Positions 22,888 through 60,034 are shown, counted from the stretch's first letter. The stretch: DNA of 64,000 bases from an uncultured delta proteobacterium (GCA_963842085.1 CAWJET010000001.1:480001-544000); one strand, 5' to 3'. Translations and numbers: made by a program. Notes: generated by a model not told the origin, from the sequence alone.

Positions 22888-23231
22888 AAGAACGACCTCC
22901 TTCAAGAAAATGCGAGCGCCTGGACCGCTTTCGAGTGATGACGATTAGAACGAGGTAGCCTCGCCTCGCTCCAGGCTTTCGCTGCGTCAGCCGGGTCCCA
23001 GAACGGACCAAATGCGCCTATCTTTTTGCACACCTCTTGAGCCTCGAGCAAACAGTTGGGAAATGTGGAAGAGTTCATCCCACGTTTCCAGACTCAGTTC
23101 AACCGCTGTGGCTATCTTTCGACGGTCTTCGCGGCAGACGACTGTCCTGAAAACGACCGTTTCCCGGACAAAAACAAAACGCAACAGAATTCGTGTCTTG
23201 TAAGTCCGGAAAATCTGTCCGTCAATTCTAA

Positions 23232-23352
23232 CTCCCATCTCCGCTATCAATTCCTCTTTCGAGTGCGTCGCAGAGGCGAAGGCTGCGGCCTCTGTGATTC
23301 TCTCGCGAGCGAGCCGCTTTTCGTGACCGGTGCTGTGGGTCAGTTCATGTAG
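23232..23352 (-). pseudogene. ArdC-type zincin metallopeptidase fragment
   Basis: LHELTHSTGHEKRLAR..SKEELIAEMG. Confidence 0.7.
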
Positions 23353-24268
23353 ATCCGGATTGCCGAGCGCTCTCGCCCGCGACTTTCTCGCTGTAGAAGC
23401 GGTGAATATTGCTGGAGATGTATTCCAGGCAATCTTCGACAGCAAAATGACCTGAATCCAGGCGGTGCATCTCAGCCTTGGGCAGATCTTTCAAGTAGGC
23501 TTCTCCGCCCTCACGCGTAAAGAAGATGTCATCTTGCCCCCAGAAAATAATCGTCTTGGGTTGACGATCACGCAGCAACGATTGCCATTTCGGATACAGA
23601 GTTACGTTAGTACGGTAGTCATAGAACAAATCCAGTTGGACACGGCGTGCGTTGGGGCGCTCCATGAAGCGGAAGTCCATATTCCAGTTGTCTGGGCTGA
23701 TAAGCTCTGCCCTTTTGTGGCCATGAAGATAGACACCCTTGATCGCGTCGACTTCGAGGAACCCGGCGAGGGGCTTCTCGGTCTCGGGCGTCCGATTCTT
23801 CCAGAGGGCGCCGCGGAACCGGTCCCATGCGCTCGTAAAGCCGACTTCGTAGGCGTTGGTGTTCTGGATAATCAACCATTCAAGCCAATCGGGGTGGCGG
23901 GTCAGCACCCTGAAGCCAACCGGCCCGCCGTAATCCTGAGCGAACAAACCAAAATAATCGAAACCCTTCTGCTCTAAGAAGTTCTCTACGACCTCAGAGA
24001 TTTTATCAAAGGTGTAGGAAAATTTGGCCGGATCCGGCATGTCGCTGTTGCCGAAGCCGGGATAGTCCGGAGCAATGACATGAAACCGATCGGCGAGAGC
24101 GAGGATCAAGTTGCGGTACTGATGCGAGGATGCCGGAAACCCATGAAGCAGTACTAGCTTTGGACTGGCGGGATTGCCGGCCTCTCGGTAGGCAATACCG
24201 AGGCCGTCAACGTTGAGAGCCTTGTATGTAACCTCAGTGGAGGGGTCGGCTGGAGAAATGAGACTCAT
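23345..24268 (-). CDS. Alpha/beta hydrolase (epoxide hydrolase-like)
   Basis: LLHGFP, APDYPGFG, QDYGGP and SGHFA motifs. Confidence 0.92.
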   Translation of the reverse strand: MSLISPADPSTEVTYKALNVDGLGIAYREAGNPASPKLVLLHGFPASSHQYRNLILALADRFHVIAPDYPGFGNSDMPDPAKFSYTFDKISEVVENFLEQKGFDYFGLFAQDYGGPVGFRVLTRHPDWLEWLIIQNTNAYEVGFTSAWDRFRGALWKNRTPETEKPLAGFLEVDAIKGVYLHGHKRAELISPDNWNMDFRFMERPNARRVQLDLFYDYRTNVTLYPKWQSLLRDRQPKTIIFWGQDDIFFTREGGEAYLKDLPKAEMHRLDSGHFAVEDCLEYISSNIHRFYSEKVAGESARQSGST

Positions 24269-24546: not shown

Positions 24547-24800
24547 CCGGAGACAACGGTTTCGCTAGGACTGCTTGCTGGAGCGGGGCGGATTCGAACC
24601 GCCGGTGTCGCGAGAAGTCTTTGCCAAGGAAAACCTCGGCGATTGCTTGAGAATTTCCTGTCGAGCTCAGCTAACATCGTCCGGAGAATGAACTCGCCTT
24701 CAGTTCGGCACCCTGCCCGCCATGAACCTCGAATTCCGGTGTCGCGAGAATGCGGCTGGGTTGCGAGACTTCCTTCCGACGAAACTCAAGTCGTCCAAGG
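24547..24800 (-). repeat. Full conserved arm + tRNA-3'-like motif + arm A, about 60 bp downstream of LSR1
   Basis: 14-mers at 24737-24750 and 24603-24616; GGCGGTTCGAATCCGCCCCGCTCCAGCAAGCAGTC on the minus strand. Confidence 0.9.
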
Positions 24801-24862
24801 CCGCTGGTCGAAGGGCCAATCGGGTGAGCACGAGCCGAAAACGGCCGCTGGTCAGTTGCCGA

Positions 24863-26551
24863 TCATCGGCAGCGTAGGATCTGGCGCTGTTTGGTCCATT
24901 CCAGCGGGAGCGGCGCGGTGTGTTTCAGCGCTTCGGCGGTGAGCGTTGCAGGCTGCGATCCATCACATATGCTTTGGACAATGTCGGGCGCGAGCAGCGC
25001 CAGCGGGATCAGGCGTTTTACGTAACTGTCATAGACGCCTTCCCGGTTGGCGATCTCTCTGATGGAAGCGGTTCTTCCCGAGGCTAATTCATGAAACCAT
25101 CGATGGCCGCGCGCGATCGCCTTGAGCAGGGCGGGGTCGGAGCGCGCGGCACGCGCCGATTCGCCCTCGATGACCAGCCTGATTTCCAACCCGCGTCGCT
25201 TCATCTCGAGCGGTATGAACCGTGTCATCGTCAAGCTGGAAGCGTCGGGGGTCTCGATCGGACCCGTGATCAGTCTCTTCAGATTCAGCGACACCCGGAT
25301 GCCGCCGCGCCCCAGCTGAACTCGATCGATCAGGTTGCTGAGATGGTCGGCGACCTCGGCGTCATCCGCGAGTTGTTTGCTTTTCGTCTCTGCTGTGTCG
25401 AGCGCCGACTGCAACTCGCCGATCGGCACGCCAGCGTCCTGCAGGGTTGCGGCGATCGTGGGCCGGTCTCCGAGCATCTGCCGACTCGCGCTTGCGACTG
25501 CGCACTCGATCTCGGGTGCTGGCAGACGCCACCCATTCTTCGCGTTCTCCGACGACCCCTGGATCACTTTGCGCGAGACGTAGTACCGGTAGCGGCGCGC
25601 GCCCTTGTTGGTGCCGCACGCGTAGAGCGGCTCACCACCTTCGTCGAACAGCTTTCCCGCCAGCGGACTCGACACCGCTCCTCGGTCGATGGTTCGATGA
25701 TGCGCCGCTTGCTCTCGCAGTTGGTGTTGCACGCGTTCCCAGAGCTCTCGATCCACGATTGCCCGATGCTGGCCGGGATGCCGGACCTTGCGGTGCCGGA
25801 TCTCGCCCAAGTAAATCGGGTTGGCGAGCAGTTCATAGAGCGCACCGCGACTGAACGGCTGTCCTCCAGATTTGATCCCTTTGCGGGAGAGCCGGTTTTT
25901 CGACAGGATCCCGTCGCGACTCAGTTCTTCTTGGAGCAGCCGAACCGAGCGAAGTTCGAGATACCGTTCGAAGATGTGGCGGACTGTCGCGGCTTCCGCC
26001 TGATTGACGACCAGACGCCGCTCGCACCAGTCATAACCCAGCGGCACCCTGCCGCCCATCCAGATGCCCTTCTTCTTGGAGGCGGCAATCTTGTCGCGGA
26101 TGCGCTCGCCGGTCACCTCGCGTTCGAACTGGGCGAAGGAGAGCAGCACGTTCAGTGTGAGCCGCCCCATCGAGGTAGTGGTATTGAACTGTTGGGTGAC
26201 GGCCACGAATGAGACGCCGTGGCCGTCGAAGACCTCGACCATTTTCGCGAAGTCCGCCAGCGAACGGGTCAGGCGGTCCACTTTATAGACCACGACTACG
26301 TCGATGAGCTTGTCGCGGATGTCGGATAGCAAGCGCTGCAATCCGGGTCGTTCCATGGTGCCACCGGAGAGCCCGCCGTCGTTATAAGCGGTCTTGACGA
26401 GCTGCCAGCCCTCGCCCGTCTGACTTTTGACAAAGGACTCGCATGCGTCGCGCTGCGCATGGAGCGAGTTGAAGTCCTGCTCCAGTCCTTCTTCCGACGA
26501 CTTTCGAGTGTAGATCGCACAACGTAGCGGCGAGGAGTTAGGCAGCTCCAT
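24863..26551 (-). CDS. Large serine recombinase (LSR1)
   Basis: CAIYTRKS catalytic Ser, VYKVDRLTRS, FAQFERE, recombinase domain and YRYY. Confidence 0.95.
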   Translation of the reverse strand: MELPNSSPLRCAIYTRKSSEEGLEQDFNSLHAQRDACESFVKSQTGEGWQLVKTAYNDGGLSGGTMERPGLQRLLSDIRDKLIDVVVVYKVDRLTRSLADFAKMVEVFDGHGVSFVAVTQQFNTTTSMGRLTLNVLLSFAQFEREVTGERIRDKIAASKKKGIWMGGRVPLGYDWCERRLVVNQAEAATVRHIFERYLELRSVRLLQEELSRDGILSKNRLSRKGIKSGGQPFSRGALYELLANPIYLGEIRHRKVRHPGQHRAIVDRELWERVQHQLREQAAHHRTIDRGAVSSPLAGKLFDEGGEPLYACGTNKGARRYRYYVSRKVIQGSSENAKNGWRLPAPEIECAVASASRQMLGDRPTIAATLQDAGVPIGELQSALDTAETKSKQLADDAEVADHLSNLIDRVQLGRGGIRVSLNLKRLITGPIETPDASSLTMTRFIPLEMKRRGLEIRLVIEGESARAARSDPALLKAIARGHRWFHELASGRTASIREIANREGVYDSYVKRLIPLALLAPDIVQSICDGSQPATLTAEALKHTAPLPLEWTKQRQILRCR

Positions 26552-27017
26552 CGCGAGCCTCCTCAGCGGGCTTCCGCAGACCAAAGAACAAGGGACCTGA
26601 CCAGCGTGTTCCAGTGATCAGACGGGCGACCTCGGAGAGCGAACCGTAGCGTTTGCCGCGATAGACGACCCCATCATCGTGCACCGTGACCCGATGCGCG
26701 TTGCCCCGCCACTCGCGAATGAGCAAAGTACCGGGAGCTGCTTTGCGAGCCAGATTTGGTCTCGCGCGGTGAGATGCCAGGTCGTCGGCGACGCGTTCGA
26801 GGAGCCGGCGCGTCGCCGGCGCCAGGCCACCGAACTCTCTCTCCTGCAAGCGGTAAGCGATCGCCCGAGTGAGCAACTCGCGGCTGATCCGTGGAGGCGG
26901 TTCGGTGTCGTACAATTCGCGCCAGCGCGATTTCAAGTTCCTGAGGTCCAAGCTGGCCAAGGCCGCGATTTCGGCGGAGATCCGGTCGGCCTGACCGAAG
27001 GAAGATTGCTCTCTCAT
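26538..27017 (-). CDS. DUF2924 protein
   Basis: AIAYRLQE..GGL, GTLLIREW and SLSEVARLITGTRWSGPLFFGL; AGGAGG RBS. Confidence 0.92.
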   Translation of the reverse strand: MREQSSFGQADRISAEIAALASLDLRNLKSRWRELYDTEPPPRISRELLTRAIAYRLQEREFGGLAPATRRLLERVADDLASHRARPNLARKAAPGTLLIREWRGNAHRVTVHDDGVVYRGKRYGSLSEVARLITGTRWSGPLFFGLRKPAEEARDGAA

Positions 27018-27334
27018 CTGCTTCCTCCTGATTCTCCGGGCCGACATACACATGGCTCGTTGTCCGCCACGCAGCCAGTCCTGCGCGGCTATCGTAGAGG
27101 CGATGCAGCGGCGAAAACCGGTATCCGAGAGGCCGAGCGCTCTCGGGCAAAGAAACCCAGTGCGGCCCCGATTCAGTGGATGCGTTACGCCGACTTGAGC
27201 TATCTGTCACCGCCGCTATGGCTGCAGATCAAAGACGCGCTCGAGCAGTTCGCCAGGTCTCCGAAGGCGAGCCGAACTGCCGTCCGCGGAAGATCGTACA
27301 CAAGACCAAACGGCCGGAGCGAGTTGAGCGCGTG

Positions 27335-27646
27335 ATGGAGGTCCGCGCCTTCGTGCTTAAGCTGCTCGCTGAGCAAGGTCGCTGGACGACGCTGTTCCAC
27401 GGTCCGCAGGTGCTGCGCTTCGAAAATTCGCGCTTCTTAATCATGTTCTACATCAAGCCACCCGTGCCGTTGGAACTGCGTGAGCGGTTCCGCATCGGTC
27501 CGCTCGGGTGCGGCCTCTATGGCTTGGAACTCTGGGACAAGCAGATCGGAAAAGTCCTGAATATAGACTGGCAGACCGCGGGGGCGGTGGCGCGGATCGT
27601 CACCTTTAAGCGCGGTGACTGGGAAGAACGCCTGCTGATGGGCTGA
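27335..27646 (+). CDS. Small hypothetical protein
   Basis: Protein-like composition ending VTFKRGDWEERLL; start uncertain. Confidence 0.45.
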   Translation: MEVRAFVLKLLAEQGRWTTLFHGPQVLRFENSRFLIMFYIKPPVPLELRERFRIGPLGCGLYGLELWDKQIGKVLNIDWQTAGAVARIVTFKRGDWEERLLMG

Positions 27647-27843
27647 GTCTCCCGTTCCATCGCGTCCGCTGCAGGCAGTCTGCACTCGTCGCTTCAGATT
27701 CCTCTGAACAGCTTTGACATCGAGATCTTGAGCGCGACTCCGATCACCTCGATTTCCGGAGCGCGACATTGCACTGTTGATCGGACGATCACGATAGAGT
27801 CGAGACCACACTTTGCGGCTACCGCGATGCAAAATCACGACGT

Positions 27844-27890
27844 ACTAATTTGGCGAAGCAGGAGGGATTCGAACCGCGGTGTCACGAGAA
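27844..27890 (-). repeat. tRNA-3'-like motif with one 14-mer
   Basis: TTCTCGTGACACCGCGGTTCGAATCCCTCCTGCTTCGCCA on the minus strand. Confidence 0.8.
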
Positions 27891-27957
27891 ATCTGCTATC
27901 GAAGAAAGAGGCGCGGGCACTTCCCGATGCGCTCGCACGCGGCTTCCCAGTCGCTGC

Positions 27958-29712
27958 TCATTTGTTTTGCTCCCACTTCACGAAGCACCCAGGATGCCAA
28001 TGCTTCCCGTTCCTTTCCATCGCAGCACCAAAGATCTGCTGCTTGCAACCGCCGCAAAAACGCACGGCGACCAGCGGCGCCGCTGGCGGTTCGGGTTCGT
28101 CCGGGCCCCAGGGGTCGCCGCCCTTCTGCAAGACGCGTTGTACCCGCTCGTACTCATCCTGCATCGTCGTGTCAGGCACCGGCGGTGGTAGGGATGGATC
28201 CTTTTCCCGGGCCCGCGCTTGTTCCGCCAGTTCTTCCGTAAACACGCTGATCCCGGGACGACGATCAGCGAATGCGAGCATTAGCGCCTCTGCGCGGTCG
28301 GGCGATTTGATGCCGCGCTTCTCCATCGTCGACTTCTTCTCCATCTCGATGAGGCCGCGCAGATTGATCTCGAACCTAAGCGACGCCAACTGCGTGATCA
28401 TGAGGTCGTCCTCGAGTCCCGACACTTTCCCCTGCTCGAAGCGCTCCCGCAGCGACCAGTACAGCTCGTCCTTGAGCCTGGCGAATCGATCAGGGAACCG
28501 GGTCGCTTCACCTACATTTACCGGAGTCACGCTGTGGAAACCGGCCACCTCGAGCGCCTGTCCGAAGTACTCGCCGGGGCCGGCCGAATCATAGTTGATC
28601 TGCGCGACGTAACGCTTGTAGGGCCCGAGGAAGTTGATGACCTGCCCGGTCGAGTGACCGTACCAAGAGCGCCAATTGACGATGCGCCCAGCCTTGGTGC
28701 GAATTACGCAGACCGTCTCGTCACCACCGCCAGCCGCGACGTCAATGCCAACAAACAATCCTTTCTCGTCGCCCTCGACGACGATTGGTTCGCGCGCGGC
28801 CTCGAGCCACTTGAGCGCGATCAGCGCATCCTCGGCCTGCAGCGGGAACTGGCCACGGACTTTCCAAGCCCAGAGCGGGCCGTCTTCGCCCCACTTGACT
28901 AGGTTTTCTTGTGCCCACAGCGGAGTCGCAAGATATGGCCGCGGCGCATACGCGATCGCGGGGTGATCTACCGGCAAGGTCCGCAGAAGGTCGACGATGT
29001 GCTCCTTTCCTTTCCGTTGTCTGACCGGCAAGCTGACATCCATTTGCTCGGCTATCTCACGGAGCTTCTCGAAGTTAGGCGTATCGAACGCGTCGATCGT
29101 AAACGTCTGCCAGTTCGCGCGATTCGTGGTGAATGCATCGTAGAAAGGGCCGCCTGGCGACGACGGATTCCCGAGCAGCAGGATCCGCACGTCGCCGCCA
29201 GCCGCCGCGCCGGAGATAGCGTCATACACTTCGGCTGGTATGCCCGGGGCCTCATCCAGGATGAACAACAGATGGGGAGCCTTGAAGCCGTGAAACTTAA
29301 TGCCCATATCCGACTTGTCCGTGCTGAAGCCCAGCCCGTAGTTGTTGGACCCAATTCTCAGTGATGCCACTCCTGGCTGCGGATATTTCATTCCGCTGCC
29401 GAGGGCGACTGGATTTCGCAACGCCTTCCGAATCTCGCCCCACATAATTTCTTCGACTTGTCGCTGTCCCGGAGCGGTATTAATTGCGATGCCATCTGGG
29501 AAGTAGGTAATGAACCAAAGAATAAGTTGAGCGGCCGTATAGGTCTTTGACGATGAATGGCAGCCCTTGACGGCGACGCGCGCCCGCGGCTTTGCGATCG
29601 CATTAGCCATCGCGATCTGCGTAGACCACCACGGCTTATCGCCGAGCATGTGCTGTGCGAACCAGACGGGATCCTGAATGGACGCGAGCAGTCGCTCCTC
29701 AGCCCCTGTCAT
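27958..29712 (-). CDS. Terminase large subunit-like ATPase-nuclease with a C-terminal LIM-type zinc finger
   Basis: KGCHSSSKT P-loop, LFILDEA Walker B, LGNP, GIDVA RNase H-like Asp and KSPDRAEAL. Confidence 0.85.
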   Translation of the reverse strand: MTGAEERLLASIQDPVWFAQHMLGDKPWWSTQIAMANAIAKPRARVAVKGCHSSSKTYTAAQLILWFITYFPDGIAINTAPGQRQVEEIMWGEIRKALRNPVALGSGMKYPQPGVASLRIGSNNYGLGFSTDKSDMGIKFHGFKAPHLLFILDEAPGIPAEVYDAISGAAAGGDVRILLLGNPSSPGGPFYDAFTTNRANWQTFTIDAFDTPNFEKLREIAEQMDVSLPVRQRKGKEHIVDLLRTLPVDHPAIAYAPRPYLATPLWAQENLVKWGEDGPLWAWKVRGQFPLQAEDALIALKWLEAAREPIVVEGDEKGLFVGIDVAAGGGDETVCVIRTKAGRIVNWRSWYGHSTGQVINFLGPYKRYVAQINYDSAGPGEYFGQALEVAGFHSVTPVNVGEATRFPDRFARLKDELYWSLRERFEQGKVSGLEDDLMITQLASLRFEINLRGLIEMEKKSTMEKRGIKSPDRAEALMLAFADRRPGISVFTEELAEQARAREKDPSLPPPVPDTTMQDEYERVQRVLQKGGDPWGPDEPEPPAAPLVAVRFCGGCKQQIFGAAMERNGKHWHPGCFVKWEQNK

Positions 29713-30251
29713 TTATTTCCCTTCTTCTCGGCAGCTCCTTGCAGCCGGCGCAACGCCTCGATCGGGATCAACGCCTCCCCGTCCTTGCCGGTCACCGCCA
29801 CCTTCGCCGGCGCCTTGTAGCCATTGATTTCAGCCTTATGCGCCAGCACCTTGACGCCGACCTCGACGCTGCGCGGATCTCCTTTGCGGATTCCTGACTG
29901 CAGCGACAGGAACATGTCTTCACAGCGTTCGGTGTCGAGCTTGCGAAGCTCAACCGCCTCGGCGTTGGGAAGACGAAGGATTCCGCGCCGAAACGCCCGG
30001 TGAACGGCCTGAGCAGAAATCCTGTACTCTTCTGTAAACCGCGCGGGTTCCGGAATGGGCACCATCGCTTGCTGCTGCCCATGTGCGACACCAACGATGT
30101 GATCTGCAATCATTTGGTAGCTCATGCCGAGCCGCTTCAGGTGTAGCGTCTCGGCCTCGACCCAGCGCGCGATGATACTTCGGTTGGTCAGTTGTCTCGG
30201 CTTGTTGGTCTGGCGAATGGTTCCGTCGGAGTTGCGTGGCTTGTTACGCAT
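29709..30251 (-). CDS. HTH protein, probable terminase small subunit
   Basis: GMSYQMIAD HTH; VTGKDGEAL tail typical of TerS; ATGA overlap with terL. Confidence 0.6.
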   Translation of the reverse strand: MRNKPRNSDGTIRQTNKPRQLTNRSIIARWVEAETLHLKRLGMSYQMIADHIVGVAHGQQQAMVPIPEPARFTEEYRISAQAVHRAFRRGILRLPNAEAVELRKLDTERCEDMFLSLQSGIRKGDPRSVEVGVKVLAHKAEINGYKAPAKVAVTGKDGEALIPIEALRRLQGAAEKKGNK

Positions 30252-30252
30252 C

Positions 30253-31506
30253 TCACTTCACCAGCTCGGGCTTCAGCCCGAGAACCGAGAGACGCTCAAG
30301 CGTCACCGCCACGTATGCGGGGTCGACTTCAACACCGTAGCCGACGCGATCGAGCTGGTGCGCGGCGAGTAATGTAGAACCGGATCCGCAGAATGGATCG
30401 TACGCCAATTCACCGGCCCTGCTGCTGTTGGCGATCATCCGCGCGATCAGTGCGACCGGCTTGGTGGTGGGATGAAACTCACTGGTCGCTGGCTTGTCGA
30501 CCTGAAAGACCGTGTCCTGTGTCCTATCGTCGCAGAAATAGTGCGGCCCGTTTTCGAGCCATCCATACAAGATCGGCTCATGGCGATAGTGATAGTCGCA
30601 CCGGCCGATCACCATCTGCTGCTTGACCCAAACCAGGTGGTGCTTGAAGGCAAATCCAGCGCGTTCGAAAGCCTCGATGAATCCGCTCAGCAGAGGTCCG
30701 GCTGCGACAGTCGCGTAACATGTCGCTCCCCGTTGCGAGTGTTCTATCGCGAGCGAAAGCGCGTCTCTGAACATCGCGTGCGTCTCGCTCGGCGAGAGCG
30801 AATCGTTGGCAATGCTCTTCTTTACAGAAGTGCCCTTGTGCAGTTGTTGGAGAGCATTATTCTTGCTCTGGACGTAATCGATTCCGTATGGCGGATCAGT
30901 CCAGGTGGATCGAATCAAAGGACCGCCGTCGCGCCAGAGTTTCGCGACCTCTGCCTTGTTGGTGCTGTCGCCACACACGAGCCGGTGTGACCCGATTCGC
31001 CAGAGTTGGTTGCGCGCTGTGCACCACTTTTTCTGCAGTTCAGCCGCTCGTTCGATCTGCGGTTCCGGGTCCAGGATTTCGACCGGCGGCCGAAGCGCCA
31101 GCGCATCTTGTTCAGCTATGCGCGTGAACAACTGTTCGACCGCCTTGCTGTCAGTGCGAACATTGTTCAGAAGTGCCTGAAGCCGCTCCGAGTCGCTCTC
31201 GGCCATGCTGGCCAATGGATCTAGAGTCAGCAGAATCTTGTCGGCTTCCTCTTCAGAGACATCCAGTATCAGGACCGGAACTATCGCCGACGGTGTTGTC
31301 TCCGCACGGAGGTGACCGTCGATCAGTTGCAGCCGACCATCTGCTAATTCCCTTGCAATCAGCGCATCCGCATACCCAACCTCTGCAAGTAACCCGCGCA
31401 GCGCAGCAGCTTGGGCCTTCGGATGGACTCGCCAGTTTTTTGGATTTGCGAGTAAATCTCTCGCGCGTACTCGTCTCAGCTCTTTAATCCGATCTCGTAT
31501 CACCAT
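30253..31506 (-). CDS. ParB-like domain + N6A/N4C DNA methyltransferase
   Basis: NPKNWR, LIDGHLR (ParB), TDPPY, HPTTKP and DPFCGSGS; GGAGG RBS. Confidence 0.92.
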   Translation of the reverse strand: MVIRDRIKELRRVRARDLLANPKNWRVHPKAQAAALRGLLAEVGYADALIARELADGRLQLIDGHLRAETTPSAIVPVLILDVSEEEADKILLTLDPLASMAESDSERLQALLNNVRTDSKAVEQLFTRIAEQDALALRPPVEILDPEPQIERAAELQKKWCTARNQLWRIGSHRLVCGDSTNKAEVAKLWRDGGPLIRSTWTDPPYGIDYVQSKNNALQQLHKGTSVKKSIANDSLSPSETHAMFRDALSLAIEHSQRGATCYATVAAGPLLSGFIEAFERAGFAFKHHLVWVKQQMVIGRCDYHYRHEPILYGWLENGPHYFCDDRTQDTVFQVDKPATSEFHPTTKPVALIARMIANSSRAGELAYDPFCGSGSTLLAAHQLDRVGYGVEVDPAYVAVTLERLSVLGLKPELVK

Positions 31507-31542
31507 CTTCCGCCTCCTCCTGCATCCGCGTTTCCCACCTTC

Positions 31543-31598
31543 AAAAAAAACGAGCCCAGCTCGACAACCGCTTTTCTTGCGGCGTCGGACTGGGCTCG
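31543..31598 (-). terminator. Intrinsic terminator-like hairpin + U8 in the leader of the methylase-terminase operon
   Basis: CGAGCCCAG..CTGGGCTCG stem followed by T8 on the minus strand, 36 bp before the ATG. Confidence 0.7.
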
Positions 31599-32159
31599 AG
31601 TCTTTCGATACCCTTGTACTCTTAGATTTTCGTTAAGACGCTCACATGCTTAGTTCCCGCCCTGCAAACTCAGACTAGCAGGACTGGTTGACCGAGTCGA
31701 ATGCCGATCCTGTGAGTGTTGTCGGCAAATCGGCGATCGTAAGATTGACCAGAGCAATGGGATCGAACCCAATGGGTCTAGCTCATTTGTATCGCCAGAT
31801 GGCTTTCACGAGCGCCGATCCTCTTATTGCCTCGTCCAGCTGATCGTGAGTGTAAGCCGGCCATAGGCGACCACGGCTTCGAGCGTGGACTTCTTGGACA
31901 GGTCGTCGGTTAATCCCAGGAGCGACTTAGTTGAGGACGCACAAACCAGACGTATTCAGCTCGGCCGCTCGCAGCCTCTCCCAAGTACCCTATATTAATG
32001 ATACGCAGGGATCGGATTCGCAGGCAGCGGAGCTGGCCGTGTCTATAAGTTCAGCTAATATTAGAATCAGACCCATTTGGGCGTCCGGACGCCTTTGTCA
32101 ACCGCCCCATAGCGTCAACCAAATGGAGCGCAAAAGCATTAGCTCGGCTAAATCAATGG

Positions 32160-32225
32160 AGACGAGTTCGCGTCAGACTCGTGCATCCCTGCAGCCAGTC
32201 AGAGCAAAACGCGTTATCTCCGAAA
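32160..32225 (+). repeat. Degenerate core + arm A
   Basis: CAGTCAGAGCAAAACGCGTTATCTCCGAA identical to 2407-2435. Confidence 0.8.
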
Positions 32226-32469
32226 GGCCGCGAACACCGGTTCGGGATATCGGCATAATTCGGTTGTGCATTTCCTCGCATCTAACGTCCGACGCGCGAT
32301 GGCACGCCTGCCGGCAACCCTACCTTTTCGAGCGCTTCAATCGCCCGATCGATCCGTCCCCTCTCCTTCTTGAGATCCGCCACTATTCTTTCCAACTCCA
32401 ACATTTGCTCCTTTGGTCAGTCCCGCAGGCGCTCCGTTCCCACGACGACCAAGTGTGATGAGGCATATA

Positions 32470-32675
32470 CCTGATCGAGCTCATTGAACGCGCCGAGCTT
32501 AGCAGCGAGGGTGTCAAACTCTCGCTAAAGCTCCCCCTCCTTCGAGCAGAAACAGGTGACAGCGCTCCCCCGGATCATTTTTCTCTCGCAAAGTTCGTCC
32601 CGATCCAGATGAAGCGGCGCGGCGTTGAGATGCGAATGGTATTTGAGGGCGCCTCCACGCCAGCCCGGGTTGACG
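32470..32675 (+). pseudogene. LSR C-terminal-region relic
   Basis: LIERAELSSEGVKLSL..KFVPIQMKRRGVEMRMVFEG aligns with LSR1/LSR2. Confidence 0.75.
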
Positions 32676-39505: not shown

Positions 39506-39674
39506 GTGATTTCATTTAGGGAGCGATGACGAGCCCCCGGAAACTGGACAACCCGATCATTCGCCTGACGACTCGTTTCAAGACCGAACGAAATGGGCGC
39601 GATCGCTACCGCTGTCCGTTTCCTACTCGCTGATCTCGTTGGCGATGTATTCGCAAAACCGCTTGAGCCGGAGG

Positions 39675-39840
39675 ACAAATTGAGTTTCGTCGGACGAAAG
39701 TTTCACAACCCAGCCAGGTTCTCGCGACACCAGAATTCAAGGTTAACGACGCGCCTGCAGGTTCATTTGCATGCTGCGCGGCACCGGAGAAGACCACTTT
39801 CTGCCGGTCCGTGCGCGAGATGCGGCCAAAGTCTCTGTTG
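39675..39840 (+). repeat. 5' part of the conserved arm (one 14-mer) joined to an arm-B segment
   Basis: TTGAGTTTCGTCGGA..TTCTCGCGACACCAGAATTC, then CGCGGCACCGGAGA shared with 42956-42969. Confidence 0.75.
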
Positions 39841-39938: not shown

Positions 39939-40190
39939 CTAGGCGATTCCCACGGCCTGTTCTTGCGCGGTCCAGAGCAGAGGGAGATCGATCCGTTCGG
40001 CCAAAGCCTCCGCGGCGAGCTCGGTTGGCTGGTTACCTGCGACTATCGCCTCGACAATCTCCGGGGCTAGGAACGCCAGCCGCGTCAATCGTCTGACGCA
40101 GCGGTCACCGACCGCCTCGCGTTCAGCGATCTCAGCAACTGACCACGCTCTGCCCGTCAGTAGGTCCTCAGACCATTGTCGCGCCCGGGC
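39939..40190 (-). pseudogene. LSR C-terminal relic
   Basis: ARARQW..IAEREAV..LAFLAPEIVEAIVAGNQP..LPLLWTAQ. Confidence 0.8.
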
Positions 40191-40349
40191 GGAAATTGGA
40201 TGTGGGATCGTCGAGTTTTGGATAAGCCCCTGATTTCGCATCTCTGAGCCGGTATCATAATCGGGCCGACCCCTGTCGGTGAAGGATTTTCATCAATAGC
40301 CAAGTGCGCGCGAGCGCCACAAGAACCAGCGGCGATTAGGAGCATCAAG

Positions 40350-42247: not shown

Positions 42248-42881
42248 CGCTGAACTGATCAAGATCACGATCGGATCGGCGTACCCCGACAACGAAATTC
42301 AGACCATGGAGATCAAGGGACGCGACCTGGTCGGCGGAGTGCCGAAGACCATCGAGATCACCGACGAGGAAATTCGCGAGGCGCTGATGGAACCGGTGAG
42401 CCAGATAGTCGAATCGGTGCGAATCGCGCTTGAGCGCACTCCCCCGGAGCTTGCCTCCGACATCGTGGACAAGGGAATTGTGCTGGCCGGCGGCGGCGCG
42501 CTGCTGCGCAACCTCGACGTTTTGCTCCACGAAGAAACCAGGCTGCCGGTCAGGCTGGCGGACGATCCGCTGACGGCGGTCGTGATGGGCGTGGGGAAGG
42601 TGCTGGACGAACTGTCGCTGCTGCGCGACGTGACTGTTGACTGATTTTTCGGGCGGATACCCCTGACAATGCGCCCGCGCTTCGGGTGACCTGACTGTGA
42701 GAAGATTCTCGCGACACTGAAATTCGAGGTGCATGGCGGGCAGGGTACCGAACTGAAAGCGAATTTATTCTCTGGACGATGTTAGCTTATCTCGACAGGA
42801 AATTTCTCAAGCAATCGCGGAGGTTTTCCTTTGGACAGACTTCTCGCGACACCGGCGGTTCGAATCCACCCCGCTCCGCCA
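42248..42881 (+). repeat. mreB: Direct repeat copy 2: mreB 3' fragment (to 42644) + arm + tRNA-like end
   Basis: Matches 1770..2404. Confidence 0.95.
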
Positions 42882-43142
42882 CACAGTTTGTAGTGTTCAT
42901 ATACAATCCGGAGATGGCGGTAAATTCGCGCGTGGACGGGCCGATTCGCTCACCTCGCGGCACCGGAGAGAGCGAATAATCTTGCAAATCGCTGATTCGC
43001 TGCGATTCCTCTCTGTTTAGAAAAGATTCGGTGCCACGAGCCCAGCCCCGGTATTTGCGCCTTTGACGCTTGACCTCTCGCCCTGATCGTCGGCCCAAGG
43101 AGGTCAGAAGAGAGGAAGAGAGAATGAGAAGGGGCGGCCGTT

Positions 43143-44807
43143 CTAATCCGCCAGCAGCCGCTGTTGCGCGTCCCACTCGATCGGAACACTGGCTTGCGTC
43201 TTGAGACGCTCGGCCGAGAGGCAGACGCTTTGTCGCCCGGCGCAGATGGATTCCACGATCGATGGGGCGAGCAATGCGAGCGGCACCAGATGGCGCACAT
43301 AGCTGTCGCTCACACCTTCTCGGGCTGCGATCTGTGTGGTCGACACCGCAGTTCCAGCCGCCAGTTCACCGAACCACTGGTAGCCGCGGCACAACGCTCG
43401 CAACAGGGAGGGATCTGTCCGAGGTACTGCGACCTTTTCTCCCCGGATTACCAGCCGGGTCTCGATGCCACGCCGTCTCATCTGCAGTGGGACAAAACGG
43501 GTCATTCGGAGGTTGGCTCCGCTCGCGGGGAATCGATCGGATGGGAGAAGCGCTCGGAGATCGACTGTGATCTGCATCCCATCCCGCTTCAACTCCACTC
43601 GCTCGAGCGGCGTGCTGGTCTCCGATTCCGCTTCGGTCTGTTCAGATGATTTGATCCTCGACCCGATTACCTCGACCGCCTGCTTGAGTTCCGCGGCAGC
43701 AAAACCGCAGGCTCTAAGGGTTGATGCCAGCGCGCCGCGATCCGAGAGGATCTGTCGTATGCCGGCCATCACTGCCAGTTCAGTACGCTCAGCGGGCAGG
43801 CGCCACCCGCGGTCATCCGGCTTACCCCTGACCAGTCTCTTGGAGACCAAATAACGGTAGCGCCGCTGTCCTTTTTTCGCCCAGCAGGAATAGAGCGGCT
43901 CGCCGCTCTGATCGAATAGTTTGCCCATGAGGAGGCCAGGGCTTCTTCTGACCGTTCTTCCCCGCGGGTGAGCGGCTTTCTTGCTCAGCATCTCCTGAAC
44001 CCGCAGCCAGGTCGCTCTCTCGATTATCGCCTCATGCTGGCCCGGATAGGTGACGTCCTTATGCCGGATTTCGCCCAGGTAGATCGGGTTGGCCAGCTGG
44101 TGATAAAGCGCGCCGCGTCCGAAGGGGAAACCGCCGTGCCGCACATTTCCTCTCGACACCCATTGCTTCGAGATGATCGACCTGCGGTCCAGTTCCTCTC
44201 TCACCCGGCGCAGAGTCTTGAGCTCAATATAGAGCCGGAATATCAAACGCACCGTCTTAGCTTCGGCTTCGTTTACCACCAGACGACGATCGCGCAGGTC
44301 GTAGCCCAGCGGCGGCATGCCTCCCATCCACATCCCTTTCTGCTTGGAAGCAGCGATCTTGTCGCGGATGCGCTCGCCGGTTACTTCGCGTTCGAACTGG
44401 GCAAACGACAGCAGCACGTTTAAGGTCAATCGGCCCATCGACGTGGTGGTGTTGAATTGCTGCGTAACCGCAACAAACGACACTCCGTAGGCATCGAAGA
44501 TTTCCACGATCTTCGCGAAGTCGGCCAGAGAACGGGTGAGGCGGTCTACCTTATAGACCACGACCACGTCGATGCGCTTTTCCTTGACGTGGGCGAGCAG
44601 GGCTTTCAGGGCTGGTCGATCCATGGTCGCGCCGGAAAATCCGCCGTCGTCGTACCCCGTTTTAACCAGCCGCCAGCCCTCGCCGGCCTGACTCTTGACG
44701 AAGGCTTCGCAAGCCTGGCGCTGCGCATGGAGCGAATTGAAGTTCTGTTCCAGCCCTTCCTCGGAAGACTTTCGGGTGTAGATTGCACAGCGCTTGGGAG
44801 CCGTCAC
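43143..44807 (-). CDS. Large serine recombinase (LSR2)
   Basis: CAIYTRKS, VYKVDRLTRS and WMGGMPPLGY. Confidence 0.95.
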   Translation of the reverse strand: MTAPKRCAIYTRKSSEEGLEQNFNSLHAQRQACEAFVKSQAGEGWRLVKTGYDDGGFSGATMDRPALKALLAHVKEKRIDVVVVYKVDRLTRSLADFAKIVEIFDAYGVSFVAVTQQFNTTTSMGRLTLNVLLSFAQFEREVTGERIRDKIAASKQKGMWMGGMPPLGYDLRDRRLVVNEAEAKTVRLIFRLYIELKTLRRVREELDRRSIISKQWVSRGNVRHGGFPFGRGALYHQLANPIYLGEIRHKDVTYPGQHEAIIERATWLRVQEMLSKKAAHPRGRTVRRSPGLLMGKLFDQSGEPLYSCWAKKGQRRYRYLVSKRLVRGKPDDRGWRLPAERTELAVMAGIRQILSDRGALASTLRACGFAAAELKQAVEVIGSRIKSSEQTEAESETSTPLERVELKRDGMQITVDLRALLPSDRFPASGANLRMTRFVPLQMRRRGIETRLVIRGEKVAVPRTDPSLLRALCRGYQWFGELAAGTAVSTTQIAAREGVSDSYVRHLVPLALLAPSIVESICAGRQSVCLSAERLKTQASVPIEWDAQQRLLAD

Positions 44808-45286
44808 TTCGAGCCATGACTCGCCTCCCGTCCCTTGCCGCGCAGACCGAAGAACTGTGGCCCGTTCCAGTGTGCGCCGGTGATCAGCTGAGCGACCTCA
44901 GTGAGCGAGCGGTAGCGCTTTCGTTTGTACAGAACTCCCCGATCGAGCACCCTCACCTCGTGAGTGACGCCGTGCCACTCGCGTATCAAGACTGTTCCTG
45001 CCGGCGCTGAAGCGGCAGGTTCAAGTTTGAACGGCCGTCCCGACCGCGCCTCGTTGGCGAGGCGAATCAACAGTCTTCTGGTGGAGGGTTTGAGCCCTCC
45101 GTGGACTTGCTCCTGGATTCGATACGCTACGGCGCGGGTTAGCAGTTCGCGGCTGATGCGATGCGGCGGCTGGGAGCCGTAGAGCTCCCTCCACTGCTCC
45201 TTAAGCTCGGCGATCGAAGATGATCTCAAGGAAGCGAGTCGCTGCGGGATCGTCTCCGCCGATTTTGTAAACCTCTCATGCTGCAT
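44804..45286 (-). CDS. DUF2924 protein
   Basis: AVAYRIQE, GTVLIREWHG and ITGAHWNGPQFFGL. Confidence 0.92.
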   Translation of the reverse strand: MQHERFTKSAETIPQRLASLRSSSIAELKEQWRELYGSQPPHRISRELLTRAVAYRIQEQVHGGLKPSTRRLLIRLANEARSGRPFKLEPAASAPAGTVLIREWHGVTHEVRVLDRGVLYKRKRYRSLTEVAQLITGAHWNGPQFFGLRGKGREASHGSK

Positions 45287-45488
45287 GTGTGCCCTGCCTC
45301 CTCTCGGGCAGTCACACACATTGCTCTGGTGCGCTTCCGAAGCCAGTTAGGACGCACTCGTCGCATTCGCCTTCCCATCGCCTTCCATCGTTCAGCGGGT
45401 CTCACTAAATGAGCGCTCATCGCTCGCTTCGTACGCGCAACAGAGCAAGCATGCGTGGCCAGCCGATACGGCTGAAGGAGACCGAGAA

Positions 45489-45945: not shown

Positions 45946-48723
45946 TCAGCGGCACCTACCCGTATCGCGCTGCTTCGGTCGGTTGTTCGCGAAATCACTA
46001 ATGTCTCGTGAACCGGAGCGCAGGAAATCCAGGAAGTCGACGTTCTTATATTTGCAGGTCTCACACACGCTCAACAAGACTAGAAAATCGCCAAGGCCCT
46101 TCTCCGTGGTTGTTCCTTCGATCACGCGGCGGAGCGTTGCGAAGGCTTTGATGGCGTGCTCTGCATTGTTGTTGTTCCAAGGTACGTCGTCGAAACCCAG
46201 AAAGGTGAACATCGTGTTGCGGTTCTTCTGCAAGCGTTCGATGATTTTTCTCGCCGCTTCGCCAGCACCAAATTCGCTGGTGAGGCGCTTGTAAAAGCGA
46301 TCGACAAAGATTCGGTGCTTTCCCAGAAATCGCTTCTTCAGGCCATGCCGGTCCACCGTCTCTATCATCGGCTTGACCAAGCTGGCAAAAGCTCCGACGA
46401 GCCTTTTGAGCTGGTCGTCGTAAGGATGCTTCAGTAGCTCGTCGTTTACGTCACGGATGAAGTGAATCAGGCATTTCTGCTGGAAGCACCGAACGGCATT
46501 GTAAGCGGCATAGAAATCCGACACCAGGACCCCCGAAAAATCCTTGAGCATCTCCTGCATGGTGTCCCCAGCCCGGGTCGCGGTATAAAAATAAGCCACC
46601 TCCTCCAGGCTAGCGAGAACCCAGACATAGCCTTCCCTGCCTTTGACGCCAATACTTGTCTCATCGACATGCAGCAAGCGACCGCTGCACAGCCTTTTCA
46701 AGATCAGGCTGTAGGTGCCTTCGTAGGTTTGCGCAGCCGCAGCCTTGAATTGGTTTGTCGTGTTCCGTGAGATGTGCAAACCGAACAATTGTTTTACGCT
46801 GCGGGCAATACGAATCTGTGGAAGCTGCAGGTCGATATTTTGGTATATCGTGTACGCGACAAGATTAGGACCGTACTTGCGGATGGGCAGCTGCCGATCG
46901 GGCGAGTAGAAGGTGCTTCGGCAGGATGGACATCGGTAGCGTTTGACGATGTAACGAGTTACCCACCGCTTTACCCCGTGCTGCATAAATCGAAGGTCGA
47001 TGACAGTCTGGGTTCTCTTGCCATGCGCATAAACCAGCTTCGATTTGCAGGTCGGGCAAGACGAGGGTCGCGGGTATTCGACTGTGGTGTTAGGTACGAG
47101 CACGCGTCGGCGCGTAGCGCATGGTCCTCGTTTGTGTCTCGAGGCACGGTTCGACTTCACATAGACTCGTTCACGCTGGTAATCCCAATATGCGGCCTTA
47201 TTGATGGTTTCCATTTCCGGAAGGACAAATTCGTTTCTTCCGAACCCGTACAGGTTTTCGCCCTTCATATTGGATGTAAGAACCAATTCTCCCTGCGCCG
47301 ATTTGCCCTCACGGGCCGCGACGCGATGCAGGTCGACCAGTCTGTTCGCTAAGAGCTCGAGGGCTTCGCAGTCTTGCCGATTATAGTCGAGTAGGGTCTG
47401 CTTCACGGCGGGGTCCCCGGATACCTCCCATCGATGCCGCCAAACGATCGTTTCGGAGCCCGACCTTAGCGAGCCCGACCATCGGAATCCGAGGTGTCCA
47501 GCGATTTCCTTCAATCCATTGGAGTACGTCGGGAAATAGATCTGTGCGTAAATGAATGAGAGAAGGTTTGTTGAATGATCGACTGCCGCCGCTGCTGGCG
47601 AATCTGCTTGTGGACCGCCGTATCGTTCGCGCATCCGTTTCAGAAAAGTGGTCTCATAGCTGCCGTAGTGGATTAGATGTGGATTCGTGATGGCCGAAAG
47701 AACGGCGAGGAAATCGTTCCATATCAGCCTTTCCGTTTTTGTATTGTCGGCCCAGAAACTGTGTTGAACGCTTCCTTCGGGTGCTTGGACACGCATCCCG
47801 ATCAGGTAGTAGAAATCACGGTCGGGCAGCCCTTCGACATCCAGAAAGACGAGAGTGCCCTCGAAGTTTGGAGCCGGAATGTCGACCGCGTGGATCTTGT
47901 TCTCACGGATTGCCAGCGCCTGCAAGGAATAATGATGTTTCTCTTGCTTGCCCCTCGAGTTCCTGCGGCGTCGGCGCGGACGAAATGTGTGGGACAGTTG
48001 GGTGACCGTGAAGATGCCCTTGTCGTGGAGCCTCTTGCGATCCTTCGCCGACATGCCTGACAGGAGACTGAGTTCGTCCTTTTCTCTAGCCTGCACCCGG
48101 CACCGAGTTTGGAACTCGCACTGGCCGCAGTGTCGATTCAGCACAAGGTCCGGCGGTGAATTGCGGGCCAAGAGTGCGGTGATGTCTTCGATCCGCTTTC
48201 GCACTTCAGTGGCGAAGCCGAGTGTGTTCACCTTTAGCACGGCGTGTTTGTCGCCATGCACTATCTTGCCCAGTTTTACATCGCGTCCAACCACCTCCGA
48301 CAACAAGAGTGCATCGAACGTGACTAGCAGCTTATGTTCCTTGGTAAGTTTGTTGGCGAATTCGAACCGATGAGCGATGAACTGGGCACGTCCGCCGCGG
48401 TCCTTAGCGGGTAGTCTCTCAACAGCCTGTAAGGAAGATTCCAGATCTCTTGTTCTCCAGCGCACATCGACGGCGAGGCGCCAGGTCAGATCCTTGGCAT
48501 TTTCTGGAATCGGCGGCGCGGTCATGCGGTCACTCTCGGAAGGGGATTGGAGCAAACGTTTGAGGCTGTCTCGGAGATATGTCTCCTTTTGCGCGCGAAT
48601 CCACTCTGCATAAACATTCGCGGTGGCCGGTTCGCCGCGTGAGCGGAGCCAGCACTTGGTAGAACATTCGAGATAGCTCTCGAATAGCTGGGAGCTGATG
48701 AGCGAAGCCCCCGTGTTCACCAC
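45946..48723 (-). CDS. TM0106/Cas4-like nuclease + exonuclease fused to an IS66-family DDE transposase
   Basis: YLECSTKCW; HCGQCEFQTRC; FLDVEG..HYGSYE..YNRQDC; CPTC/CPSC; LHVDET, SDFYAAY, QKCLIH and NNNAEHAIK. Start near 48720. Confidence 0.85.
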   Translation of the reverse strand: MVNTGASLISSQLFESYLECSTKCWLRSRGEPATANVYAEWIRAQKETYLRDSLKRLLQSPSESDRMTAPPIPENAKDLTWRLAVDVRWRTRDLESSLQAVERLPAKDRGGRAQFIAHRFEFANKLTKEHKLLVTFDALLLSEVVGRDVKLGKIVHGDKHAVLKVNTLGFATEVRKRIEDITALLARNSPPDLVLNRHCGQCEFQTRCRVQAREKDELSLLSGMSAKDRKRLHDKGIFTVTQLSHTFRPRRRRRNSRGKQEKHHYSLQALAIRENKIHAVDIPAPNFEGTLVFLDVEGLPDRDFYYLIGMRVQAPEGSVQHSFWADNTKTERLIWNDFLAVLSAITNPHLIHYGSYETTFLKRMRERYGGPQADSPAAAAVDHSTNLLSFIYAQIYFPTYSNGLKEIAGHLGFRWSGSLRSGSETIVWRHRWEVSGDPAVKQTLLDYNRQDCEALELLANRLVDLHRVAAREGKSAQGELVLTSNMKGENLYGFGRNEFVLPEMETINKAAYWDYQRERVYVKSNRASRHKRGPCATRRRVLVPNTTVEYPRPSSCPTCKSKLVYAHGKRTQTVIDLRFMQHGVKRWVTRYIVKRYRCPSCRSTFYSPDRQLPIRKYGPNLVAYTIYQNIDLQLPQIRIARSVKQLFGLHISRNTTNQFKAAAAQTYEGTYSLILKRLCSGRLLHVDETSIGVKGREGYVWVLASLEEVAYFYTATRAGDTMQEMLKDFSGVLVSDFYAAYNAVRCFQQKCLIHFIRDVNDELLKHPYDDQLKRLVGAFASLVKPMIETVDRHGLKKRFLGKHRIFVDRFYKRLTSEFGAGEAARKIIERLQKNRNTMFTFLGFDDVPWNNNNAEHAIKAFATLRRVIEGTTTEKGLGDFLVLLSVCETCKYKNVDFLDFLRSGSRDISDFANNRPKQRDTGRCR

Positions 48724-48845
48724 ATCCCTAGCGGAGGCGTCCACGCCCTGACTCTCTAGACTTGGTGCGGACCAGTCAGGAGCGAACGGGAACTCTCCGG
48801 ATCGAACCAGGTGGGCGCGCCCAGCGATGCCCGGACCTCGGGCGC

Positions 48846-49787
48846 TCACTCTCCCTTGCTGCGGTGATCGTACGAGATGGAGTAAGCGGCCGATCGGGCC
48901 AGCAGAATCGGATCCGCCGAGAGATCGATGCCGTCGGTCAAGTTGGTGGGGTCGAACACCAGGCGGCGCTCGTCGGCGACGCTGATCGGAGAGAGGCCGG
49001 TCACCTCCAGCCGCCCCAGCTCGACCAGGGGCCGGTCTGTCGGCCACAAGGCGCTGACATCGTCCGTCGGATCGCCCTGCCCAGCCAATTGCAAGAGCAG
49101 GCGGAACACGACCGGACCGTTCCTCAGGCGGCTTTCCAGCTCCTCGCGCAGGAAATTCGTGCTGCGCGTGCTCGCATCATCAGGGGAGAGGTAGGCTTCA
49201 CCGGCCTCGGGTATCCAGCGATAGCGGCCGAATCGGCTGGTGCCATCCGCGGCAGTGAATTTAAAGGCGTGCTCCGCATAATAGCTGGCCCGCCCGTAGC
49301 TGGCCGGCACCGGTTTCCGCATCAGACACTCAATGAAGTCGCGCGTGGCGGGATGACTCTCGAGAAAGCGGGGGACCGCATCGGGTGCGGGCTTGCCGGT
49401 AGCCGGGTCGGGGAGTTGCGCGCGCAGGAACGCGAGAAACTCGTCAGGTGTCCGCGCGGGAAACCCTTCGATGTGGAGCGCCAGGATGTCTGCGTTCTTG
49501 CCATCGGGTAACTGAAATTTCACCGCCAGCGCGCGGGCGTTGGGGATGCCATCGTGTACGTCGGGATCCCCGCTCGAATTGGAGAAACGCACTACGGTTG
49601 GGACCGCTTGCCCTTGTAGATGAAGCGCGCGGCTCACAGCGCGCGCGCCTGCTGAAGCGCGAAACGTACCCGAGCAAACGATTCCCTTGGCGTGAACGGG
49701 ACGAAACCCCGGATGCGGGCCGGCTAGCGTCCGCATGGTCTCCACGAGTTGAGCAATAACGTTTGCTGATGCGGCAGATCCTGACAT
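48846..49787 (-). CDS. Catalase-related heme peroxidase (SrpA-like)
   Basis: RPVHAKG, VRFS and DPILLARSAAY. Confidence 0.9.
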   Translation of the reverse strand: MSGSAASANVIAQLVETMRTLAGPHPGFRPVHAKGIVCSGTFRASAGARAVSRALHLQGQAVPTVVRFSNSSGDPDVHDGIPNARALAVKFQLPDGKNADILALHIEGFPARTPDEFLAFLRAQLPDPATGKPAPDAVPRFLESHPATRDFIECLMRKPVPASYGRASYYAEHAFKFTAADGTSRFGRYRWIPEAGEAYLSPDDASTRSTNFLREELESRLRNGPVVFRLLLQLAGQGDPTDDVSALWPTDRPLVELGRLEVTGLSPISVADERRLVFDPTNLTDGIDLSADPILLARSAAYSISYDHRSKGE

Positions 49788-59983: not shown

Positions 59984-60034
59984 CGACGCCAAAGCTCGCT
60001 CGCCCTGACTTATTTCGGCCGAGCTCCGATCGCC

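Follow-up and report, generated by a model that had tools for sequence, protein, structure and literature searches.

Phage satellites are described as either borrowing the large terminase of a helper, as phage-inducible chromosomal islands (PICIs) do, or bringing a terL gene of their own with capsid-side genes, as in capsid-forming PICIs (cf-PICIs), chromosomal islands with their own terS and terL that are defined also by capsid, adaptor and connector genes; PICIs have a median length of 9.5 kb and carry a regulator and a primase-replicase (all according to the accessible part of PMC10085698). A further layout is that of Wolbachia phage WO in which, in the accessible part of its description (PMC10299305), a ParB_N-methylase gene lies just inside attL and is followed by terminase/gpW and portal genes, and the recombinase gene lies just downstream of that for a DUF2924 protein. 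The locus described here is in a 64,000-nucleotide stretch of DNA, the window below, from an uncultured delta proteobacterium of the Binataceae (GCA_963842085.1, CAWJET010000001.1:480001-544000; in our notation G000:C1:480001-544000, G000 being a complete two-contig genome). A block on its minus strand, 24548-32228, carries intact genes for a methylase, a small terminase-like (TerS-like) protein, a large terminase (TerL), a DUF2924 protein and a large serine recombinase (LSR). The first three form a capsid-less packaging cassette that derives from phage packaging modules; it is recurrent and conserved, and has ties to LSR sites and genes. Tentatively, and with a little less than even confidence, we take the block to be a compact, phage-derived and capsid-less member of a family of LSR integrative elements of the Binataceae, possibly a satellite; the island may be a parasite of phages and not merely a dead phage.

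Open reading frames (ORFs) were annotated with Pfam and PHROGs, supplemented by NCBIfam and PADLOC scans. As an earlier note on this DNA had claimed, the methylase, TerS-like and TerL genes are co-oriented and intact, and are followed by the DUF2924 and LSR genes (Table 1). Its statement that the block has no portal, capsid, tail or replication gene is likewise borne out by the family scans and by lack of space: Pfam and PHROGs revealed no portal, major capsid or tail family in the block, small ORFs in the non-coding remainder matched no family of the four collections, and that remainder, at 316 + 904 + 719 nt, is such that a portal or capsid gene cannot fit. The 133-aa ORF between the DUF2924 gene and terL similarly matches nothing in Pfam, PHROGs, NCBIfam or PADLOC, and was rejected as a relative of a gene neighbouring another locus, L082, since the sequences are not similar (genomes, loci and metagenome runs bear our handles G, L and X). 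Contigs from independent soil metagenomes of two studies bridge the DUF2924, terL and methylase genes over 26662-32188, one of them spanning that whole interval with 2 differences, so that the gene arrangement is not an assembly artefact of this genome. Contigs in two runs end exactly at 32188, the start of a repeated arm. Single-contig joints at 20665/24596 and 25572/32594 (opposite strands) and at 21947/29849 have short sides and involve repeats or paralogues, and were not used.

Table 1. Features of the block and of related sequences in the window (positions counted from the first nucleotide of the window)
Feature	Position	Strand	Matches and remarks
att-like repeat unit B, ~260 nt	24548..24808	+	nhmmer profile 2.5e-25
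LSR1	24863..26584	-	Pfam Resolvase PF00239 2.9e-39, Recombinase PF07508 7.4e-17; phrog_95 1.1e-100
DUF2924 protein	26538..27053	-	Pfam PF11149 1.1e-47; overlaps LSR1 start
ORF, 133 aa	27437..27838	-	may not be a gene; single copy in genome
Core fragment F1, 47 nt, tRNA-3'-end-like	27849..27895	+	nhmmer 9e-7; 63-109 nt past terL stop
Large terminase (ATPase + nuclease), 584 aa, intact	27958..29712	-	phrog_2 2.5e-31
TerS-like protein, 180 aa, start-stop coupled to terL	29709..30251	-	phrog_645 1.2e-12 only
ParB-N / N6-N4 methyltransferase fusion, 417 aa	30253..31506	-	N6_N4_Mtase 7.1e-22, phrog_498 1.2e-85
attP-type inner arm, two GGTTGAC repeats	32092..32188	-	nhmmer 2.1e-7; 7.6e-7 genome-wide
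Outer arm fragment F2, 37 nt	32192..32228	-	94.6% identical to outer arm 2403-2438 beside mreB
LSR fragment, residues ~408-482, 2 TGA	32450-32671	+	adjoins repeat fragment
LSR fragment, residues ~490-569	39954-40193	-	adjoins repeat fragment
Second intact DUF2924-LSR pair (LSR2)	43143-45319	-	59% identical to LSR1

The trio of methylase, TerS-like and TerL genes is found well beyond the window. A locus search with the single TerL protein yielded no relative and a TerL alignment was used instead; TerL relatives are present in 36 of 165 genomes of the family Binataceae. By tblastn the trio occurs in 12 of 20 fetched loci of the family, and a scan with the TerL alignment, restricted to one genome per species, detected it in 18 of 80 kept loci, 11 already known and 7 new. 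Distinct trio loci number 19 plus the window, 20 in all, from Binataceae and a few Acidobacteriota; the counts include G157, a genome flagged as unpublished (probably also L048), and without G157 each count falls by one, leaving the conclusions unchanged. The earlier note had proposed a search of other genomes for the same gene order lacking portal and capsid genes: apart from the window, 16 trio loci offer 2.5 kb or more of sequence downstream, and not one of them has a portal or head family there, as judged for 10 of them by Pfam (up to 7 ORFs per locus) and for 6 by PHROGs (co-oriented ORFs of at least 250 aa within 6 kb). Portal or head genes do accompany TerL relatives lacking the trio, in 4 of 8 cases in a first batch (L014, L015, L021 and L029) and at 25 loci in a second, 29 across both. 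ORF clustering across 21 loci showed nothing else conserved around the trio, and in IMG/VR the trio was recovered from one of 80 kept loci, a 4.3-kb contig. In one genome, a pair of copies with 86% identity have in common the sequence that runs from an attP-type site up to a point about 26 nt beyond the terL stop.

Of the 165 family genomes, 43 have the TerS-like gene, with up to 9 and 7 copies in a single genome; they represent 15 of 30 genera. None was found in 396 sampled genomes from other families of the phylum. The multi-copy genomes G088, G130 and G149 are all without the portal family PF04860, which occurs in only 18 of the 165. The complete G000 genome shows no sign of a resident helper: it contains no match to PF04860, PF05065, phrog_12 or phrog_2662, other portal and capsid families not having been searched.

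At the protein level, TerL lacks a Pfam match at 1e-3. In an alignment of 19 sequences including the window protein its Walker A residues K56 and T57 and Walker B residues D153 and E154 are invariant, as are the nuclease acidic residues D324, D375 and D472, and its profile matches terminase nuclease domains of solved structure in the PDB (8dkr_B, 1.8e-6; 5c10_A, 1.7e-4). A tblastn search matched 377 phage records, every one at less than 60% identity and the top one at 32.9%. A second phrog_2 match in the genome (G000:C2:105387-106601, plus strand, 1.3e-28) contains one in-frame TAG. The TerS-like gene overlaps terL by 4 nt, and a domain of the same phrog_645 type is also encoded directly upstream of terL in a portal-bearing prophage, L014; the library label of that family, 'Rnase E', was not followed. 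The model of the TerS-like protein (predicted local distance difference test, pLDDT, 79) consists of an N-terminal helix pair and a long helical hairpin. Foldseek returned no match to it at E <= 0.001, and VIA gave the DeoR DNA-binding domain at Z 7.2, a score that means little for helical proteins, and the G20C small terminase at Z 6.8 with a root mean square deviation of 9.7, which is similarly weak for proteins of this kind. The methylase, besides the matches in Table 1, matches ParB-like PHROGs (2.5e-7 to 2.9e-6).

The window and L044, L047, L049, L050, L056, L082 and L057, the last having a methylase of another type, contain a DUF2924-LSR pair, or a fragment of an LSR gene, no more than 10 kb away from the terminase genes. 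The position of the LSR varies, being upstream, downstream or, once, inverted. Among six loci extended to about 70 kb, the complete chromosome of G023 provides the clearest example, with the trio, 13.8 kb of cargo and DUF2924-LSR genes on one strand of an island of about 20 kb (L028 and L195, G023:C1:571103-590450). Its cargo includes genes for a 5-hydroxymethyldeoxyuridine (5-hmdU) DNA kinase, a MazG-like (MazG-C) protein, an ImmA/helix-turn-helix (HTH) pair and a type I restriction-modification system, along with a weak dCTP-deaminase-like match (E 0.002); no replicase was seen in the island beside the ImmA/HTH pair, and an attP-type element was not detected at this locus. G023 thus has the layout of the window with cargo added, and the cargo between the ends ranges from almost none in the window to about 14 kb of defence-type genes in G023. 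L082 has the trio, 1.65 kb, a DUF2924 gene and a truncated LSR gene. The family layout is an attP-type site with the coupled trio, variable cargo, and DUF2924-LSR, without head, tail or replication genes.

The attP-type site is an element of about 100 nt with GGTTGAC repeats that lies 0.4-6.6 kb (mostly 1.0-1.6 kb) upstream of the methylase gene in 14 of 18 trio loci, and that is found also in L033, L044, L053 and the window. In L056 and L044 the order is LSR gene, attP-type site, cassette, so that the element directly follows the LSR gene, the arrangement expected of an attP site. The possibility that it is a tRNA was rejected: no tRNA overlaps it in 20 loci, the only one present being a tRNA-Ser in L047 some 4 kb off. 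As to the recombinase, LSR1 retains the catalytic Ser motif and aligns with LSR2 and the G023 LSR at 58-59% identity; its true start is likely the ATG at residue 12. The DUF2924 protein we infer to be an accessory or directionality factor. Full-length LSR paralogues in G000 number five, at about 60% identity, and all of them are directly preceded by a DUF2924 match; several others are broken.

Were such an element a satellite, its LSR, perhaps with the DUF2924 protein, would move it into and out of tRNA-Ser-like sites, and a helper phage would supply proheads. The TerS-like protein would recognise a site on the element, for which the repeats are candidates; TerL would then cut the element's DNA and pump it into helper capsids, and the methylase might protect the DNA or gate the cut. 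We regard it as doubtful that soil Binataceae and some Acidobacteriota host undescribed, capsid-less satellites combining ParB-methylase, TerS and TerL with DUF2924-LSR, defence cargo and the use of helper proheads. The distinct satellite class suggested in the earlier note is in part favoured by the recurrent portal-less trio, the link to LSRs and attP-type sites and the G023 layout.

Repeat and nhmmer searches showed the core and arm motifs noticed earlier at both ends of the block, and between the terL and DUF2924 genes, to be real. Repeat unit B comprises an outer arm, a core resembling the 3' end of tRNA-Ser, a body of about 135 nt and an inner flank touching the LSR1 3' end. Copies of this unit of about 260 nt are at 2227-2433, 24548-24808, 42705-42881 and 59738-59984, with one more just beyond the window, and all five contain a 15-nt direct repeat twice, at a spacing of 135 nt; the point of the unit at which an element is joined seems to differ between elements, being either the core or the second 15-nt repeat. 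Fragments are at 27849-27895, 32192-32228 and 39673-39750. The 13-nt core occurs 5 times in the window versus 0.25 expected, and the core profile matches four true tRNA-Ser genes of the genome. A tRNA or transfer-messenger RNA (tmRNA) gene was considered for the core and rejected, ARAGORN reporting none in the window and Rfam none at gathering scores; at E <= 10 the sole Rfam match, to permuted tmRNA, was weak, scoring 20 bits where the cut-off is 47, and the tmRNA of the genome sits elsewhere. We keep the view that it is a tRNA-Ser-3'-end-like att core and not an RNA gene. Taken together with the attP-type arm, F2 has the form of an attL-type hybrid site. F1 is inverted relative to the site upstream of the methylase gene. 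L044 has its counterpart some 100 nt beyond terL, and a conserved att-like site in this position was detected in the window and L044 alone, relaxed nhmmer searches and motif greps being unconvincing in the other cassettes.

The surroundings of the block are heavily rearranged. Positions 1770-2404, the mreB 3' end plus repeat, are duplicated at 42248-42881, 40 kb apart and in direct orientation (635 nt, 98.6% identity), and the 3' flank of LSR2 runs into the repeat core and 397 nt copied from the mreB 3' end (42705-42990). The LSR fragments at 32450-32671 and 39954-40193 are remains of further elements. Given the repeats, the duplication and the LSR paralogues and fragments, the block occupies a hot spot, downstream of mreB, at which LSR elements piled up and recombined. 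A degraded methylase/TerS-like remnant with an attP-type site nearby, at G000:C1:572895-575636, some 29-32 kb past the right window end, indicates that this hot spot reaches well beyond the window. Directly upstream of the second DUF2924-LSR pair is a 1033-aa ORF (45946-49047, minus strand) combining a Cas4-like nuclease, RNase_H_2, a zinc ribbon and an IS66-family DDE transposase domain. Outside the other end of the block, a 152-aa ORF (22987-23445, minus strand), with a zincin-like MPTase-PolyVal domain (5e-7) and a match to the PHROG 'anti-restriction protein' (1.9e-9), is probably a fragment of an ArdC-like gene from another mobile element.

A number of observations weigh against the interpretation of the block as a member of a family of integrative elements with a possible satellite life style. 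Neither a regulator of AlpA, MerR or Stl type nor a primase-replicase was found for the 7.7-kb block, the ORFs covered being those of 24.4-32.5 kb. In 4 of 18 trio loci no attP-type element was detected (the contig of one of the four, L082, begins inside the methylase gene), and methylase or TerL is frame-broken in 5 of the 19 other trio loci (L047, L049, L050, L106 and L108). Some 10 other attP-type sites in G000 have no terminase, so that the repeats need not be a pac site and may serve the recombinase instead. The sites at the ends of the block (24.6 versus 32.2 kb, and likewise 27.9 versus 32.2 kb) are inverted, not direct, an orientation seen also for the two sites around the trio in L044; the window copy may for this reason be immobile, or may invert instead of excising. 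The LSR1 3' flank is unlike the flank type found beside LSR2, another paralogue and L056, and the partner type of the outer junction at 32.2 kb adjoins LSR2 at 42.8 kb and not LSR1. Attempts to explain the window sites by a single clean attL/attR pairing or by one inversion history were given up, no simple scheme fitting. The window copy, with its inverted ends, mismatched LSR1 flank and rearranged LSR remnants, is not a cleanly bounded unit that could be excised; within the family it may be a copy that was stranded or rearranged.

Ancestry of the terminase speaks in the same direction. The closest TerL, of 57-61% identity and broken into three frames, belongs to L021, as does the closest ParB domain (72%). 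L021 is a decayed prophage that has, besides a portal and head genes, a DnaD-like replication gene and a small terminase of a different kind. Several TerLs of 43-48% identity also sit in portal-bearing prophages. The TerL phylogeny recommended in the earlier note, so far a quick, unfinished tree, gave a divided answer: 14 trio TerLs cluster, forming with 3 others one clade with full support, but the window TerL falls outside this main trio clade, beside the TerL of L033 and portal-linked ones, and its branch length is 1.53 where the median is 0.25. The window methylase is 59-63% and the TerS-like protein about 50% identical to main-clade proteins. With TerL outside the clade and its two partners close to it, the cassette is a mosaic.

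These facts bear most directly on the alternative that survives best, although we consider it unlikely: that the block is the deletion remnant of an LSR prophage of WO layout which lost everything between terL and DUF2924, leaving two functionless ends. Phage WO has a matching end layout (PMC10299305, in the part available), an att-like fragment lies exactly between terL and the DUF2924 gene, the nearest TerL and ParB relatives belong to a portal-bearing prophage, the window TerL has a long branch, and around the block there are LSR fragments, truncated transposases and pieces of other genes. The earlier note had named closest homologues in complete prophages as the mark of such a remnant; this holds in part, the nearest TerL (broken, in the decayed L021) and several of 43-48% identity being found with portal genes. 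Set against a remnant are the intactness of all five window genes and the presence of the same trio, with the same boundaries and without a portal, in 16 other loci, a pattern that random decay would not produce. Between portal-less loci, the ratio of non-synonymous to synonymous substitution rates (dN/dS, NG86) is 0.075-0.237, or 0.08-0.24 when rounded, in 30 of 36 trio gene-pair comparisons, the other 6 having saturated dS; these low values, which argue against functionless ends, could partly be left from a phage past. In G023, moreover, non-structural cargo occupies the place where head genes would be, and the multi-copy family genomes lack the PF04860 portal.

A second alternative, which we think improbable, is accretion, in which a terminase cassette (32228 to about 27849) and a minimal DUF2924-LSR element (about 27849 to 24548) came to lie side by side at the hot spot; the LSR might or might not then act on the cassette in trans. 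The att-like F1 divides the two halves, the outer junction of the cassette has its partner beside LSR2 and the LSR1 flank is of another type. Furthermore, flanks of 10 kb contain an LSR in only 6 of the 19 other loci, on either side or inverted, and none in the remaining 13, although flanks of 10 kb miss more distant LSRs, such as that across the 13.8-kb gap in G023, and the genome holds at least five intact LSR paralogues as well as the attP-type sites without terminase. Accretion is opposed by the co-oriented order of trio and DUF2924-LSR shared by G023, L082 and the window, and by the metagenomes. In runs X4 and X5 the contigs from LSR1 through the methylase share one raised k-mer depth distinct from both flanks (10-12 with flanks of 5.6-8.0 in X4, 14-15 with flanks of 6.4-6.7 in X5), hinting that the block exists, as one piece, in extra copies or other strains; k-mer depth of metagenome contigs is not, however, copy number, and in run X7 the block has no depth excess, the former point telling against our interpretation.

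It is also quite unlikely that the terminase has been repurposed as a restriction-like or phage-interference system acting inside the cell as LSR-island cargo, since TerL and the TerS-like protein have no PADLOC match, the conserved motifs of TerL are indistinguishable from those of packaging enzymes, the location beside an attP-type site at an element end is that of a phage packaging module (PMC10299305, in the accessible part) and no such system was found described in the literature searched. In that scheme the methylase would mark self DNA, the TerS-like protein would recognise DNA and TerL would cut, or jam the packaging of, an invading phage. A methylase, a DNA-binding subunit and an ATPase-nuclease do resemble a three-part restriction system, and neighbouring genes in the family include those for Mrr, a REase-ARP nuclease, type I restriction-modification and DNA hypermodification. 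The genome offers no portal partner among PF04860, phrog_12 and phrog_2662, the portal families searched, others not having been covered. The methylase matches the PADLOC type II methyltransferase model at 1e-66; PADLOC matches in the block are confined to this protein and to generic type II methylase models, with TerL, TerS, DUF2924 and LSR matching 0 families in PADLOC-DB 2.0 at E <= 0.01.

Returning to the block as a member of a family of LSR elements, its interest rests in the family more than in the window copy, the family being a variant of LSR temperate phages and phage satellites. A portal-less methylase-TerS-TerL element was not described in the accessible text of the literature searched, supplements aside, and the DUF2924 literature found was all from Wolbachia. 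If the satellite interpretation is true, bringing a complete terminase alone would amount to a third satellite strategy, the match of terminase to portal would be exploitable across phages, and an uncultured soil phylum would be opened to the study of phage parasitism and gene transfer, restriction and DNA-modification genes being among the cargo of relatives. If instead the cassette acts inside the cell, a packaging motor would have been turned into defence.

Among known systems, cf-PICIs resemble the block as islands with a terL of their own beside a terS (in the block, a terS-like gene); the block differs in having no capsid, head-tail adaptor or connector families and in its integrase, an LSR with DUF2924. 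Classical PICIs, including Staphylococcus aureus pathogenicity islands (SaPIs), share with it the small integrated island, a gene of small-terminase type (which in PICIs redirects packaging) and, in its relative G023, defence cargo, whereas the block has terL and a ParB-methylase, and a regulator and replicase were not found.

Phage P1 has a pacase with a methylation-gated pac site. The likeness to it is that a methylase has short repeats and a putative two-subunit terminase for neighbours, and that 'terminase B' is the annotation of TerL relatives in plasmids and phages; the difference is that the GGTTGAC repeats, here a candidate site, also occur at attP-type sites without terminase.

Closest in gene order is phage WO, as far as the accessible part of its description goes, the comparison being one of gene order. 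Between its two ends, WO carries modules for portal, head, baseplate, tail and lysis, of which none is present in the block or its 16 relatives. Both, on the other hand, have a methylase and terminase inside one att site and DUF2924 followed by a recombinase at the other, and the end layout of phage WO in this way shows a possible origin of such an element.

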